From: a virus
Lineage: Duplodnaviria > Heunggongvirae > Uroviricota > Caudoviricetes
Direction: 5' to 3' (one strand)
DNA length: 4,505 bases
IMG/VR virus record: IMGVR_UViG_648276643_000012
Every line of letters begins with the position of its first letter. The stretch's first letter is position 1. Below are positions 1-4,505 of the stretch, piece by piece. Position numbers and translations under genes: made by a program. A model generated the notes under the pieces. The model was given only the letters and a program-made list of their open reading frames with translations, was not told where the DNA came from and ran no database searches.

Positions 1-420
1 ATGACGGATTATCAGCCATACAGGAAAGGAACTGTGCTTGCCCCAACTGGGCCATGCAATCATCTTCATGTGATTTGTAATGATCCTGTTTATTACCCCG
101 TTAACGATTGTTATTGTGTTTTAGTTGTTAATATTTCTAGTATCAAGGATGGGGTCCCCCACGATCCGTCTTGCGTCTTGAATTCCGGTGATCATCGCTT
201 TATCAAGCATCCAAGTTATGTTGTTTACGCTGAAGCTATAATTTGGCGAGTGGATAACATGGTTAGAAAGCAGCGATCGGGTGAGATTTCTGTTCATGAT
301 GATATGCCAGAAGCTACATTCAATAGAATTCTGGACGGTTTTGATATATCTGATGAAGTTACGCCAAAGAACCTTAAATTTAAAAATAAATATTGCGTAT
401 CATCTATTGATGATGAGTAA
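1..420 (+). CDS. Hypothetical Cys/His-rich protein (139 aa); low-GC accessory gene; the 5' end coincides with the window start so the true start is uncertain
   Basis: ATG at 1 to TAA at 418-420. Product has clustered Cys/His (CNHLHVIC, CYC, HDPSC, HRFIKH) and an acidic C-terminus. Hand-counted GC is about 39% (163/420), versus about 55% in a sampled 60-nt stretch of the minus-strand operon (1561-1620). No family recognised. Upstream region is not in the window. Confidence 0.5.
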   Translation: MTDYQPYRKGTVLAPTGPCNHLHVICNDPVYYPVNDCYCVLVVNISSIKDGVPHDPSCVLNSGDHRFIKHPSYVVYAEAIIWRVDNMVRKQRSGEISVHDDMPEATFNRILDGFDISDEVTPKNLKFKNKYCVSSIDDE

Positions 421-459: not shown

Positions 460-633
460 ATGGAAGATCAAAAAGCAACCAAGCCACAGGTTAAGTTCGA
501 CACAATGAAAGCATTCGCAGGTATGGGTGCTGCTGTTGAAGTTCTGATGAAGGCTGCTCCTAATGCGTTCACTCACGCTACTGTCTCTGGTAAAGAGCTG
601 CAGGGTAAGCTTCGTCGTCGCAAAGCAGCATGA
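460..633 (+). CDS. Small hypothetical protein (57 aa), Ala/Lys-rich with basic tail RRRKAA
   Basis: Found by reading frame 1; it is absent from the ORF track, presumably for length. ATG at 460 is preceded by GGAG (450-453) with a 6-nt spacer; TGA at 631-633. It lies 39 nt downstream of the 1-420 ORF, so probably co-transcribed, and a strong terminator follows about 20 nt downstream. Confidence 0.5.
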   Translation: MEDQKATKPQVKFDTMKAFAGMGAAVEVLMKAAPNAFTHATVSGKELQGKLRRRKAA

Positions 634-652
634 TCATAGCTGGTGCTTTTTG

Positions 653-683
653 AAAACCCGCCTTTAGGCGGGTTTTTTCTTTA
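653..683. terminator. Rho-independent terminator, probably bidirectional, between convergent transcription units
   Basis: Perfect 10-bp stem AAAACCCGCC / GGCGGGTTTT with a TTTA loop, followed on the + strand by the T-run TTTTTTCTTT. On the - strand the same hairpin is followed by a shorter run (UUUUCAAAAAG). It sits immediately after the stop codons of both the + strand 57-aa ORF and the - strand 681-962 gene. Confidence 0.75.
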
Positions 684-962
684 GTGATGTTCTTTGCCCT
701 TCTGTTTGCCTGTTCTGACCTGTTCCCACTCGATACGTCCTTCTTCTCGTCTTTTGTCTATGTATTCCGCAAGATCCTGAATATTGATGCAACGTTTTGC
801 TTTTTGTGATGTGCCGATGCGATATGTTGGAACGGGCAACTTACAAGCGTTTGCTTTTGCTTCTGCCGTGGCTGGACTCATGCCAAAGTACTTTTGGCTA
901 ACTGCTGAGAGTTCAATGTTAGGGGTATTGAATTCAGCCATCAGTAAAAACAAGGTGTTCAT
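681..962 (-). CDS. PrtN-family / excisionase-like small DNA-binding protein (93 aa); last gene of the minus-strand operon
   Basis: TAA at 681-683. ATG at 962 has GGAG with a 6-nt spacer (GATGGAGAAAATTATG). The track's longer GTG start at 989 and the ATG at 974 lack an SD. N-terminus MNTLFLLMAEF... and overall size resemble PrtN-type (pyocin activator / phage excisionase-like) proteins as I recall them; not searched. Confidence 0.65.
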   Translation of the reverse strand: MNTLFLLMAEFNTPNIELSAVSQKYFGMSPATAEAKANACKLPVPTYRIGTSQKAKRCINIQDLAEYIDKRREEGRIEWEQVRTGKQKGKEHH

Positions 963-998
963 AATTTTCTCCATCAAAACCGGCTGCACCCGGGAAAA

Positions 999-1571
999 TC
1001 ATAATTCTGTGCTGGTGGCAGGAATTAATTTCTGCCAGATAGCGGAAACATATTTTACCTGATGACGGGCATCAGCCAGGGCGTTGTGCCGTTCGCCATC
1101 GAAAGGCATGTCCATTTTGGGGTCGAATCCGATGGAACGCCCAAGCGTAACGATCGTGCGTACATCGTGGTCATTCCAGTACGCCCACGGGCAGATTTGT
1201 CCTGCTCGCTCATAAGCTCCACGTAAAATTACGTTGTCGAAGGTGGCCCCGTTACCCCAGACTTTTAAATATTTCGTATTGTCTGCGTGCCGGTTAATGA
1301 AATGGTTTAGTTCTGAGAGAGCATCGCTGATCGACAAAGTATCATCAATACAGATTGCAGCTCGCGCTTCAGGGCTTTGTTTCAACCACCACAGGATGGT
1401 ATCGCCGTCAGGTGTAGCTCCTTGCTTCATAGCACTGTCTAGGCTGACAACCGCATAGAATTCTTGTCCGATGTCTCCGGTTTCTGGAGTGAAGAACACC
1501 GCGCCAATGGAAACGATCGGTGCATCCTTATTTTTCCCCATCGTCTCAAGGTCGATCATTAAGTTGTTCAT
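999..1571 (-). CDS. DEDDh-type 3'-5' exonuclease (DnaQ-like fold), phage-encoded
   Basis: Motif I D-x-E in MIDLETMG, and motif III H-x4-D in ERHNALADAR. ATG at 1571 overlaps the TGA of the upstream gene (TGATG) with AGGAGG 7 nt upstream. The track's GTG at 1574 would have only a 4-nt spacer. Stop TGA at 999-1001. Confidence 0.8.
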   Translation of the reverse strand: MNNLMIDLETMGKNKDAPIVSIGAVFFTPETGDIGQEFYAVVSLDSAMKQGATPDGDTILWWLKQSPEARAAICIDDTLSISDALSELNHFINRHADNTKYLKVWGNGATFDNVILRGAYERAGQICPWAYWNDHDVRTIVTLGRSIGFDPKMDMPFDGERHNALADARHQVKYVSAIWQKLIPATSTEL

Positions 1572-2137
1572 CACTTCACCTCCTGCGGCGGTTCCGGTAG
1601 CGGCATCCAGTGAGTTGCTTGCTCAATACCATTACCCGGCTTAATCGTTGCTTCTCCTCGCTGGAATGTGCTTCCTGTATAGCGTGCGGAGCATATTAGC
1701 GGTTCAACCAGATAGCTATCGAAATTCACCGAAATAAGCACGTTCTGGCCCTTTTCAGGCATTCGATCACTACAGCTTATCCAACTATCCGGAGTTCCCG
1801 GAGAGTTGCCATTTACATCGAAGTTTGGCTCTGCGTCCTGAACCAGGAGGATGTAACCATTCTTGGCTGTATCAAGTTCTAACGCCTCGGTGACGGTACC
1901 GAAATAGCGATTACCTAAATCAGCATCACAAGTGCTTACATCAATGGAAACCTCCATGCCTTCGATTAATTCTGGCATGTTGTAAGTTTGGCTTACAGGC
2001 TCGACTTCCAGTGAGGCTAACGCAATCCGTGCCAGTTCTTCCGCTTCTTCTGCTGGCAGTACAACGTTGCTACCCGATCCGTATGTTTCGCGCCACTGCT
2101 GGATTGTCAGCAGGCGTTCTTTGGTAATAGTGGTCAT
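1571..2137 (-). CDS. DUF551 domain protein (188 aa) with an unassigned N-terminal region of about 110 aa
   Basis: ATG at 2137 with an AAGGTG SD and 8-nt spacer. C-terminal segment WISCSDRMPEKG...THWMPLPEPP matches the DUF551 signature I recall from lambdoid prophage early regions. Stop TGA at 1571-1573. Confidence 0.75.
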   Translation of the reverse strand: MTTITKERLLTIQQWRETYGSGSNVVLPAEEAEELARIALASLEVEPVSQTYNMPELIEGMEVSIDVSTCDADLGNRYFGTVTEALELDTAKNGYILLVQDAEPNFDVNGNSPGTPDSWISCSDRMPEKGQNVLISVNFDSYLVEPLICSARYTGSTFQRGEATIKPGNGIEQATHWMPLPEPPQEVK

Positions 2138-2139
2138 AG

Positions 2140-2328
2140 CTATTTCACCTTAATCTCAACATTTCGCAGCTTTAGCTCTACTGGCAGGTCTGACTTTCCG
2201 GTTAATGCTAATGCGAGATTTTCTGGAGTAATGAGAGCAGTTATTGTTCTACCCATCGCAAGGCGGATAATCAGCCTTATCTCTTCGTCACAAGCGCCAG
2301 GGCGAATAATTGATATTTGTCCGTTCAC
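2140..2328 (-). CDS. Small hypothetical protein (62 aa from GTG; 76 aa if the upstream ATG at 2370 is used)
   Basis: GTG at 2328 lies 1 nt after the TGA of the upstream gene, with AAGGAG 6 nt upstream. The alternative ATG at 2370 would overlap the upstream gene by 41 nt and has no SD. TAG at 2140-2142, 2 nt before the next gene's ATG. It fills an otherwise empty slot in a tightly packed operon. No family recognised. Confidence 0.45.
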   Translation of the reverse strand: MNGQISIIRPGACDEEIRLIIRLAMGRTITALITPENLALALTGKSDLPVELKLRNVEIKVK

Positions 2329-2329
2329 C

Positions 2330-2848
2330 TCACTCTCCTTTAATGCGAATGCCAGCGGCGCGGGAATCATTCCATCGCTTTACTTCTTCACGAATTACGT
2401 CAATGCATTCTTTCGAATCCATTAGGTAATCTTCATCAAAAAGACGTTCCTGTTCGTTTTCTATCGCAACAATGATTGCTTCAACTAACTTTTGTGCCTG
2501 AGAACCACTTTCTAACTCTGCTATGCGCTTACTCCCATCAGAGATAACACCTTCGTAATATTCACGCTGCTCGTTGAGTTTTGATTTTGCTGCCTCCAGT
2601 TCGTCCAGTAGTGCAATCACATCAGGGTCACTGTCATCAACTACTGTTACGCGTGATTTTTCATAATGTTCGTCGGCAAGTGTTCGACCAATTTTGAAAT
2701 CTCCATCACCACCATAACTGGAGCAGGCATAAACGACATGTGCTCCAGATATACGCTGTATTGACATTTCCTCGCCACAAACAGAGCATTCAGGTACTGG
2801 CTTAGGTGAATAACGTTCCCGTAGCGTCTGATAATCAATCTTGCTCAC
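2330..2848 (-). CDS. Hypothetical phage protein (172 aa) with N-terminal CxxC Zn-ribbon-like motif and coiled-coil; possibly ead/Ea22-like
   Basis: GTG at 2848 overlaps the TGA of the methyltransferase gene (GTGA) with AGGAGG 7 nt upstream. Contains PECSVCGEE...H...YACSS (C-x2-C ... H ... C), an acidic stretch (VVDDSDPD) and the segment ALLDELEAAKSKLNEQ, which resembles a motif I associate with ead/Ea22-like proteins (from memory, unverified). Stop TGA at 2330-2332. Confidence 0.7.
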   Translation of the reverse strand: MSKIDYQTLRERYSPKPVPECSVCGEEMSIQRISGAHVVYACSSYGGDGDFKIGRTLADEHYEKSRVTVVDDSDPDVIALLDELEAAKSKLNEQREYYEGVISDGSKRIAELESGSQAQKLVEAIIVAIENEQERLFDEDYLMDSKECIDVIREEVKRWNDSRAAGIRIKGE

Positions 2849-3330
2849 TGGTTGCCCTCCTTCATAAAAATAATCCAGTGGGTCTTGTCACCCTTTCCTG
2901 TTCGTTGACCGATAACAGGCTTTCTGTCGGTCAGTGCCAATATCTGGCGAACAGGTATTTGCGTTTCATTCCATTTAAAAATCAGAACGCCGTATGGCCG
3001 CAACACACGAAAGGCTTCTTTAAATCCCTGCCGCAAATTATCACGCCAGGTATCTTTATTCAGCCGTCCATATTTCTTTCCCATCCAGGCGTTATCACCA
3101 ACACGCTCAAGATGCGGAGGGTCGAATACAACAACCGGAAACGATGCGTCTGCAAATGGTAATGCACGAAAATCTGCTGTCAGGTCAGGGCTAATTATCA
3201 GCCGTCGTCCATCACACAATGTGTGCTCTTCCTTTCTGATATCGCTAAATATCGCCCGGTCGTCATTCTTATCGAACCAGAACATGCGACTGCCACAGCA
3301 CATGTCGAGGATTGTTGCATGTCCAGTCAC
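2845..3330 (-). CDS. Small SAM-dependent DNA methyltransferase (about 161 aa), amino-methyltransferase type with DPPH catalytic motif; probably orphan
   Basis: GTG at 3330 overlaps the TGA of the upstream gene (GTGA) with AGGAGG 6 nt upstream. The track's ATG at 3363 (172 aa) lacks an SD and would overlap the upstream gene by 37 nt. Motif I-like ILDMCCGSRMF (encoded about 3280-3312) is followed some 55 aa later by DPPH (encoded 3112-3123). Stop TGA at 2845-2847. Confidence 0.8.
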   Translation of the reverse strand: MTGHATILDMCCGSRMFWFDKNDDRAIFSDIRKEEHTLCDGRRLIISPDLTADFRALPFADASFPVVVFDPPHLERVGDNAWMGKKYGRLNKDTWRDNLRQGFKEAFRVLRPYGVLIFKWNETQIPVRQILALTDRKPVIGQRTGKGDKTHWIIFMKEGNQ

Positions 3331-3677
3331 TGGCTGCCTCCTTTGCGAATCTGTTCCGCCCATTCTTCAAGGGATTTCTCTGCATATTCACCGGACAGGC
3401 CATCAATTGGATGCGACTCATTAGCTAACTCTTCTTTCGCTGACAGAATCATGCGTGTAACATCGAAAACTTCAGCCAAAGGCTTATTGATAAATCCGTG
3501 ATTGAAAGCAGCAGCAAGACGGCTTGCGGTATAGTTAATACCCTCGTTGCGAGCCTCAGCACGTACTTCATCGAATTTACGCACCAGATACTCAGCATTT
3601 GTTTCATTCACTTTCAGATCTCGTGGTACACATTTCCCGCGAAGAAACCCTTCCATTTCGAAAACATTCATGCGCAT
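3327..3677 (-). CDS. Hypothetical protein (116 aa); YfdS-like by position downstream of the yfdR-like gene
   Basis: ATG at 3677 with GGAG 8 nt upstream; start overlaps the end of the HD gene by 10 nt. TGA at 3327-3329. No recognisable catalytic motif. The assignment rests on synteny with the yfdQ-yfdR-yfdS-yfdT cluster of E. coli K-12 CPS-53/KplE1, not on sequence recall. Confidence 0.7.
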   Translation of the reverse strand: MRMNVFEMEGFLRGKCVPRDLKVNETNAEYLVRKFDEVRAEARNEGINYTASRLAAAFNHGFINKPLAEVFDVTRMILSAKEELANESHPIDGLSGEYAEKSLEEWAEQIRKGGSQ

Positions 3678-4204
3678 TTGCGTAACTCCGATAACTCGTT
3701 AAAACGTTCCATAAACATCCCGTAGGCATGGCCCGGTGCCAGTGGAATCACGTTGAACATCTCTGTTGCCGGGATGCCTTCCAGTACAGGCCAGAAAGAG
3801 CCATCATCAAGCCCGAGATCGCGGCGTTCGGTTGCCAGCATGATGAGATCGGCATATTTCACGGGCGTACTCATAACCGGGGGTAACCCGTATTTCTCAC
3901 GGATTACGGCGTCTATTTTTTCTTCCATCTGTTTATAGTCAGGAAGAAGGCGTTTCAGTGGAGCGGGGATGTCCTGGCAATACGCTTCTGTTGCATCATG
4001 CATTAACGCTTCAAAAGCAAATTCCTGCGGTACCAGCTGGCTGCAAAGAACCACATGTTGGGCGACGCTGTAGAAGTGCGAAAGATGACCGGCAAAGCGA
4101 CAGATATTTGAAAGGGAAACCGCGATATCGTTAATATCGATGTCGTCTTTATTTATCCTGTCATAATAAAAATGCTTACCGGAAAAAGTTTTAATAAATG
4201 ACAT
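3668..4204 (-). CDS. yfdR: HD-domain phosphohydrolase, 5'-deoxynucleotidase YfdR-like (178 aa)
   Basis: HD signature present: H in VAQHVVL, then HD in EALMHDATEAY. The protein as a whole resembles E. coli K-12 CPS-53 prophage YfdR as I recall it. ATG at 4204 is preceded by GGAG with a 6-nt spacer (GTGGAGAACAAAATG). The track's GTG at 4231 is a 9-codon upstream extension without an SD. Stop TGA at 3668-3670. Confidence 0.85.
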   Translation of the reverse strand: MSFIKTFSGKHFYYDRINKDDIDINDIAVSLSNICRFAGHLSHFYSVAQHVVLCSQLVPQEFAFEALMHDATEAYCQDIPAPLKRLLPDYKQMEEKIDAVIREKYGLPPVMSTPVKYADLIMLATERRDLGLDDGSFWPVLEGIPATEMFNVIPLAPGHAYGMFMERFNELSELRKCA

Positions 4205-4297
4205 TTTGTTCTCCACGTATATGCGCTGCACCGCGCTGAATTCTGGTAAAAGGAAGCCCTCACCATCCGGCGATTATTGAGTTAATTACGTTTCCAT

Positions 4298-4319
4298 AAA
4301 TGCCCCCGCAGGGGCATTT
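4298..4319 (-). terminator. Perfect stem-loop in the intergenic gap; possible partial terminator or RNA structural element upstream of the yfdR-like gene
   Basis: Inverted repeat AAATGCCCC-CGCA-GGGGCATTT (9-bp stem, 4-nt loop) at 4298-4319. On the - strand it lies just downstream of the partial ORF stop (4332) and is followed by UUUAUGG, a weak U-tract. The + strand context is not U-rich. Confidence 0.4.
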
Positions 4320-4331
4320 GCAGTAATGAAA

Positions 4332-4505
4332 TCAGGCGGTGAAAGTACCAATAAAGGTTTCTACTTTGCTGTCTTTGAATTTCTCAACAAGCAGATCACG
4401 AAATTCGTTAGCCATTTCTTCCTGCACTGCTTCCAGCTGAATAATGCGCAGAACCAGTACAGGACGATCGCCAGTGATAATGCTGAGGCGTAATTTAAAT
4501 GGACG
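4332..4505 (-). CDS. 3' end of a gene truncated by the window edge (58 codons visible); likely yfdQ-like by synteny
   Basis: The - strand frame is open from 4505 to TGA at 4332-4334, translating to ...[57 protein letters not shown]. It is missing from the ORF track, presumably because the visible part is under the length cutoff. It sits immediately upstream of the yfdR-like gene. Confidence 0.55.

Follow-up and report, generated by a model that had tools for sequence, protein, structure and literature searches.

Lambda Xis, the penultimate function of the pL operon, is a small winged-helix, DNA-bending cofactor of a tyrosine integrase; PrtN of Pseudomonas aeruginosa, the founding member of a different Pfam family, activates pyocin genes under PrtR control. 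Integrases specific for dusA were defined in genomic islands, 60 of 94 of which carry a prtN homologue that was assigned no role (Farrugia et al., 2015; PMC4482086). The PrtN-domain protein of dusA elements was subsequently named RdfN: deletion of rdfN abolishes excision, Int and RdfN together are necessary and sufficient to excise a minimal dusA element in E. coli, int and rdfN lie on opposite sides of attP, and int is transcribed from a promoter of its own (Durand et al., 2021; PMC8409611). The same authors remarked that such modules of recombination directionality factor (RDF) and integrase must be swapped in circular form, and asked what drives rdfN in prophage-like dusA elements (Durand et al., 2021; PMC8409611).

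We examined a locus of this kind in a stretch of 4,505 nucleotides, here called the window, all of which is matched at 100% identity by the chromosomes of E. coli 20Ec-P-124 and BCE049; its genomic context was read from these two. In both, zur, a 470-base gap, and a Panacea-domain gene precede the window, as does a 5′ remnant of dusA, and a complete lambdoid prophage spans approximately 43 kb rightward. Its genes follow in the order cI-like repressor, Cro-like gene, replication genes, Q antiterminator, lysis genes, terminase, head, tail, and tail-fiber genes, dinI, and finally a minus-strand integrase of the tyrosine type, 365 aa long and divergent from dusA. By sequence, phage 1720a-02 is a relative of the window. 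Between the Q antiterminator gene and the lysis genes, at 34187-35361 of the prophage locus, lie genes annotated as “subtilase family AB5 toxin binding subunit” and as “scabin-related ADP-ribosyltransferase.”

Within the window, a minus-strand operon runs without gaps from 4505 to 681, comprising the 3′ end of yfdQ, yfdR (an HD-domain 5′-deoxynucleotidase), a 116-aa gene, a SAM methyltransferase, an Ead/Ea22 gene, a small ORF, a DUF551 gene, a 3′-5′ exonuclease and, last, ORF 681-962 (Table 1). The preliminary description of this DNA had recognized an excisionase-like gene at the end of an operon with no integrase beside it, and both observations hold: there is no integrase in the window or immediately to its left, where the neighbors are the Panacea gene, attL, and zur. 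Its expectation of an integrase at the far end of the prophage was borne out by the 365-aa tyrosine recombinase approximately 43 kb away.

Table 1. Features of the locus. Positions are those of the window unless another record is named.
Feature	Position	Strand	Basis or remark
139-aa cargo ORF, low GC, phrog_19071	1..420	+	ATG overlaps (ATGA) the stop codon of the upstream Panacea/SocA-domain gene
57-aa ORF of unknown function, phrog_2741 (E 1.6e-35)	460..633	+	
G+C-rich hairpin terminator between convergent cargo genes and RDF gene	652..677	.	fold z-scores
Probable rdfN-type recombination directionality factor (excisionase) gene, 93 aa, PrtN domain	681..962	-	PF11112, PHROG 1300
RDF-gene leader: 4-bp CCGG stem, GUGCAG loop, Shine-Dalgarno GGAGAA, AUG	963..998	-	fold prediction
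Early-left operon, genes upstream of RDF gene	999..4505	-	would deliver transcription to the RDF gene
Panacea/SocA-domain gene, directly left of window	prophage locus 19432-20004	+	PF13274, E 1.8e-18
Arm repeats	Lys8385Vzw attP 3998-4033, 4220-4239; YeP2 attP 1240-1480		flank dusA-type core

The last gene of the operon very probably encodes the RdfN-type RDF of a lambda-like E. coli prophage residing in the 5′ end of dusA, judging from its family, its neighbors, and its partner integrase. The predicted protein matches Pfam PF11112 (PrtN) with an E-value of 4.2e-23 and 81.7 bits, above the cut-off of 24.2, and PHROG 1300, “excisionase,” with an E-value of 1.1e-39. PF11112 was the sole result of the Pfam search, which gave no Xis-type match, and a search of NCBIfam returned no model for the protein. 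ATG 962 is the true start codon, as a GGAG Shine-Dalgarno sequence lies 7 nt upstream and the opening MNT.F.LMA forms the N-terminus of 15 of 15 aligned homologues, down to 39% identity. At 93 aa the protein falls in the range of about 75-95 aa for small PF11112 proteins of the RdfN type; the same element carries a dusA-specific tyrosine integrase (the 365-aa PF00589 protein), lies in the 5′ end of dusA while supplying a new 5′ end, and has its RDF gene across attP from int, with no xis downstream of int. It has no detectable sequence similarity to lambda Xis or to TorI, and BLASTP against K-12 TorI gave no alignment; the preliminary description had rightly judged the protein not to be TorI-like and proposed a different RDF family in an equivalent position, which RdfN/PF11112 supplies.

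The closest relatives share this setting. Gp25 of phage mEp460 (NC_019716.1), annotated “excisionase,” is 97% identical and has the same neighbors (the 57-aa gene, the terminator, and the exonuclease), integrase, and attP. A PrtN protein from V. cholerae, 76 aa long, shares 61% identity (E 4e-33), a figure that refers to a protein from a V. cholerae dusA element and not necessarily to RdfN of IMEVchUSA3. On its contig the order is a zur-like gene, a dusA remnant (RLSVAPMLD), one gene, the PrtN gene, an OLD/UvrD pair, and a PF12835 gene; the PrtN gene thus lies approximately 1.9 kb inside the dusA-remnant junction of an element with a PF12835 gene, and the V. cholerae dusA element and the E. 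coli prophage have the same architecture. Like RdfN of IMEVchUSA3, the window protein is a small PrtN (PF11112) protein paired with a dusA-specific tyrosine integrase; its gene lies on the other side of attP from int, hence at the opposite end of the integrated element, and a few genes separate it from the att site. The two differ in control, the IMEVchUSA3 gene having an AcaCD-responsive promoter whereas the window gene would be under a cI-like, S24-peptidase repressor; and compared with the V. cholerae homologue the window protein has about 17 extra C-terminal residues.

Structure prediction points weakly in the same direction. A confident AlphaFold2 model built on a 16-sequence alignment (pLDDT 88.9, pTM 0.75) combines a helix-turn-helix and a beta wing with a short helix and, beyond the DNA-binding core, a long C-terminal helix (residues 61-90). 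A sequence search of the PDB with the protein found no match, and Foldseek against the PDB returned nothing at E ≤ 0.001; its matches had TM-scores of 0.43-0.49, with a best E-value of 0.076 for 4lhf, a phage P2 DNA-binding protein (18% identity) that we take to be Cox, the P2 RDF. The list also contains a Klebsiella putative excisionase and Pukovnik Xis, again weak, all at E > 0.05. The model weakly suggests an RDF-like winged helix; Cox itself is an RDF with a winged-helix core, but the match to it is weak and there is no detectable sequence relation to the window protein.

P2 Cox is both an RDF and a repressor, and TorI both an RDF and an inhibitor of the TorR response regulator. The window protein might likewise combine its role as an RDF with that of a transcriptional or protein-level regulator, a second function to which its best structural match, Cox, the presence of the proven activator PrtN in its family, and the extension of helix 61-90 past the DNA-binding core would all point. 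We nevertheless think such a combination unlikely, as the fold match is weak and the C-terminal tail is the least conserved part of the homologue alignment and is missing from the V. cholerae homologue.

Co-occurrence of the RdfN-type protein with dusA-type integrases extends well beyond E. coli. We searched 50,697 phage records by tblastn with the RDF and the integrase separately, and compared the sampled match lists. At least 16 phages appear in both lists, and their range takes in Yersinia, Klebsiella, Vibrio, Shewanella, Ralstonia, Burkholderia, and Pseudomonas. Among them are Yersinia YeP2, Klebsiella Kp4882-1, Salinivibrio SMHB1, Shewanella M16-3, Pseudoalteromonas ACA2, small Vibrio cyclitrophicus prophages, Ralstonia GP4, Gervaise, and RPZH6, Burkholderia BcepIL02 and DC1, and Pseudomonas H66 and E220. 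Among the 20 integrase matches listed at ≥92% query coverage and ≥34% identity, 16 are these same phages, and the remaining four come from phage groups of Vibrio and Ralstonia that have many members in the RDF list. Within E. coli, xis is present in 741 of 5,426 genomes and full-length int in 728 of 5,426, the two genes being counted separately. In strain N47 (NZ_CM165890.1, scaffold-level), rdfN and a dusA-type integrase gene are approximately 2.4 Mb apart, either through a large rearrangement between prophages or as an assembly artifact.

This co-occurrence bears on whether the protein could instead be a PrtN-like transcription activator of other phage or host genes, with no part in excision. 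Its sole Pfam match is named “Pyocin activator protein PrtN,” RefSeq gives it a PrtN-type name, and PrtN, with which it shares the Pfam domain, is a transcription activator. Against this, the gene accompanies dusA-type integrases across unrelated phage types; it occupies the xis/torI position of related operons, in a recombination module with no pyocin-type regulon evident; no prtR-like partner is annotated beside it; the prophage has its own Q antiterminator for late genes; and a homologue has been shown to be an RDF (PMC8409611). We therefore consider a pure activator very improbable.

Phage genomes display the recombination module in its unintegrated form. In Lys8385Vzw, whose integrase is 100% identical to that of the prophage, and in mEp460, which has the same integrase and attP, the order is int on the minus strand, attP, cargo on the plus strand, the terminator, and xis on the minus strand, with attP visible directly between int and the cargo genes. 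After integration this order places xis near attL, and int at attR beside dusA. Yersinia phage YeP2 has no cargo, its xis being separated from int by a 278-bp attP gap with a dusA-like core. In lambda, by contrast, xis overlaps int and attP lies beyond int, whereas here attP and the cargo lie between xis and int.

Repeats flank the core in both types of attP. The E. coli phage repeat, TGGGA(A/G)CCT, occurs twice on the xis side, and twice directly and once inverted on the int side; the YeP2 repeat, AGCACCCC, differs in sequence and has the identical 2 + (2 + 1) layout. As the layout is kept while the repeat sequence changes, the repeats are probably protein-binding arm sites, most likely those of Int by analogy with lambda, whose attP has two P-arm and three P′-arm sites. 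Positions 4150-4180 of the Lys8385Vzw attP read ...CCCATGCTCGAATGCTCGATAGG..., with the core partly duplicated (ATGCTCGA ATGCTCGA) relative to mEp460, possibly an artifact of circularizing a prophage sequence.

We located the prophage ends by comparison with the unoccupied site. At the right end, the integrase is followed by dusA starting MHDNHETQKINQTSVMPEKTGVYWNSRFSVAPMLDWTDRHC; at the left end, a truncated ORF, MPAESHTVYPAYRFSIAPMLD, directly follows zur, left of the Panacea gene, and enters unrelated sequence past ...GATGCTTGA/TAGGATG. Joining the left flank ending GATGCTTGA to the right flank starting CTGGACGG gave a sequence of 433 bases that is found uninterrupted at 99-100% identity in 1,020-1,043 E. 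coli genomes; at ≥80% coverage the junction is present in 1,043 of 5,426 genomes, where the annotation is always dusA. The joined sequence is the empty site, attB. attL carries the dusA 5′ remnant (RFSIAPMLD), and attR is a phage-borne dusA′ 5′ end fused in frame: the phage provides a replacement 5′ end for the gene it enters. attL and attR have the 8-base block ATGCTTGA in common and diverge on either side of it, so crossover occurs within this block. The core, ATGCTTGA/ATGCTCGA, is common to attL, attR, attB, and attP and lies inside the dusA codons for APMLD; the PhiR47_1 record begins exactly there, at GAT/AGGATGT, and the present site corresponds to the dusA att sequence that phage 1720a-02 is reported to use in Citrobacter rodentium (PMC6328086).

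In K-12 MG1655 (4259000-4263000), yjbL-yjbM sit between zur and dusA, and the first 330 bases of the zur-dusA region hold no dusA remnant beside zur. The K-12 dusA 5′ end (MHGNSEMQKINQTSAMPEKTDVHWSGRFSVAPMLD) resembles the phage-borne dusA′ 5′ end, unlike the MPAESHTVYPAYRFSIAPMLD allele of the empty site in approximately 1,040 genomes; the K-12-type allele is either a fossil of an old dusA integration or represents the source host of the phage dusA′ segment.

Between attP and the RDF gene lies a slot whose content varies. The preliminary description had noted convergent, compositionally different genes past the terminator, and indeed ORFs 1-420 and 460-633, on the plus strand, have a GC content of 0.38-0.40 compared with 0.44-0.50 in the operon. 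In Lys8385Vzw the slot reads, from attP, the Panacea gene, the 139-aa gene, and the 57-aa gene, all on the plus strand, then the terminator and xis. The mEp460 slot differs from that of the window prophage: where the latter has the Panacea pair, a single 178-aa gene lies between the 57-aa gene and attP. Homology of mEp460, and of many E. coli prophages, to the window begins at about 447. The 57-aa ORF accompanies the RDF gene and the terminator in mEp460, in Lys8385Vzw, and in numerous E. coli prophages, and is absent from the PhiR47_1 group; in PhiR47_1 and phiSTEC1575-Stx2k the slot is occupied by two unrelated genes that bear the annotation PanA/PanT and have a hairpin of their own ahead of xis. 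Among related prophages, homology breaks at approximately 447 or approximately 705-712 of the window. Because the left-hand genes are found inside the phage genomes of Lys8385Vzw and mEp460, circular and linear, between attP and xis, we conclude that the convergent genes are phage-borne cargo in a swappable slot, not host DNA. The 139-aa protein is rich in Cys and His and is a candidate toxin partner of a PanA-type antitoxin, as its overlap with the Panacea gene would suggest. PADLOC found nothing for the cargo genes, NCBIfam had no model for the cargo proteins or the Panacea protein, and nothing above noise came from Pfam at E ≤ 1 for either the 139-aa or the 57-aa protein.

The hairpin between the cargo and the RDF gene is the top-scoring terminator-like site of the window. 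It begins four bases past the stop codon of the RDF gene and has an 11-bp stem with six G-C pairs and fold z-scores of -2.5 (plus strand) and -3.3 (minus strand). A proper T-run follows on the plus strand only, the minus-strand stem being followed by UUUUC AAAAA, with four U. The hairpin is thus clearly an intrinsic terminator for the plus-strand cargo transcript, which it would end where it converges on the operon, and a weaker one for the minus strand, so that its earlier description as bidirectional stands for the first direction and less well for the second. It marks the mosaic junction of the swappable cargo slot, which accounts for the GC step there.

The preliminary description had placed a possible prophage boundary at this terminator, with the att core in or near 634-690. 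Pattern searches found neither the dusA core nor the TGGGAACCT arm repeat in 634-690, and counts of core and arm patterns across the whole window were at chance level; the attL core lies at about -829 to -822 in window coordinates, some 830 bases left of position 1 and approximately 1.5 kb and three cargo genes from the RDF stop codon. Comparison with genomes lacking the prophage, the test by which the boundary had been proposed to stand or fall, puts the junction elsewhere than the terminator. That the prophage ends at approximately 650-680, with host DNA to the left, has a negligible chance of being right: convergent transcription, the GC drop, and the breaks in homology speak for it, but it is refuted by the empty-site junction, by the presence of the left-hand genes in packaged phage genomes, and by the lack of a core or arm motif in 634-690.

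The operon has a known counterpart. In K-12 KplE1 (CPS-53), a homologous yfdP-yfdQ-yfdR operon ends in an RDF gene, torI, just before attR, and the integrase, IntS, is at the other prophage end; the analogy drawn in the preliminary description is apt. The two differ in that torI lies approximately 70 bases from attR whereas the window RDF gene is not directly adjacent to its att site, 1.5 kb of cargo separating it from attL, and in that KplE1 targets argW with a different integrase whereas the window prophage targets dusA. With a shared operon but dissimilar RDFs, KplE1 and the window prophage carry exchanged RDF and integrase modules, which fits the remark on swapping in circular form by Durand et al. 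(2021).

We suggest that this operon makes excision inducible. The repressor combines an HTH_3 with a Peptidase_S24 domain, and immediately downstream of its gene there is a promoter-like site (10 of 12 matches) directed leftward. SOS-induced cleavage of such a LexA-like, self-cleaving repressor would open the early-left operon, and the leftward transcript would pass yfdP, yfdQ, and yfdR before reaching rdfN. Because the RDF gene ends the early-left operon under an S24-type repressor, its product, like lambda Xis, would be made only after induction; int would need its own promoter, as the early-left transcript could not reach it at the other prophage end. The RDF would then bind an att arm as a winged-helix protein and, by homology with RdfN, act as the inducible switch that turns Int from integration to excision.

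A second layer of control may lie in the leader of the RDF gene. The leader is predicted to fold with -13.1 kcal/mol (z -2.1), and in a longer predicted helix the Shine-Dalgarno sequence and AUG are paired with the final codons of the exonuclease gene. Its motif, GTGCAG-N(4-20)-GGAGAA, occurs three times in 44.5 kb against 0.05 expected, upstream of rdfN (963-998, minus strand), yfdR (4209-4231, minus strand), and a KilA-N gene (prophage locus 31645-31670, plus strand); each copy has a 4-bp G+C stem and a GUGCAG-type loop 9-12 nt before a GGAGAA Shine-Dalgarno sequence. An RNA element common to the three genes might gate translation of the excisionase, a speculative proposal that we would not expect to hold; more ordinarily, the sequence would be one conserved at module junctions, with simple coupling of translation. 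If such gating were true, the element could serve as operator for a post-transcriptional mechanism, so far undescribed, that sets the timing of excision.

The literature already contains the gene and its family, the partner integrase, and the arrangement with int and xis on either side of attP (Farrugia et al., 2015; Durand et al., 2021), and work on phage 1720a-02 likewise covers this arrangement (Balasubramanian, 2019). As mEp460 gp25 is already annotated as an excisionase, the finding is an ordinary one that carries little weight as a discovery. It does bear on annotation: the RefSeq label “pyocin activator PrtN family protein,” applied in approximately 740 complete E. coli genomes, would be better replaced by “RdfN-type excisionase,” and boundary callers that trust a terminator and a GC drop would wrongly cut off the cargo slot. 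For the question of what drives rdfN in prophage-like dusA elements, the layout of this prophage suggests an answer: rdfN would be expressed from the end of an operon under an SOS-cleavable repressor.
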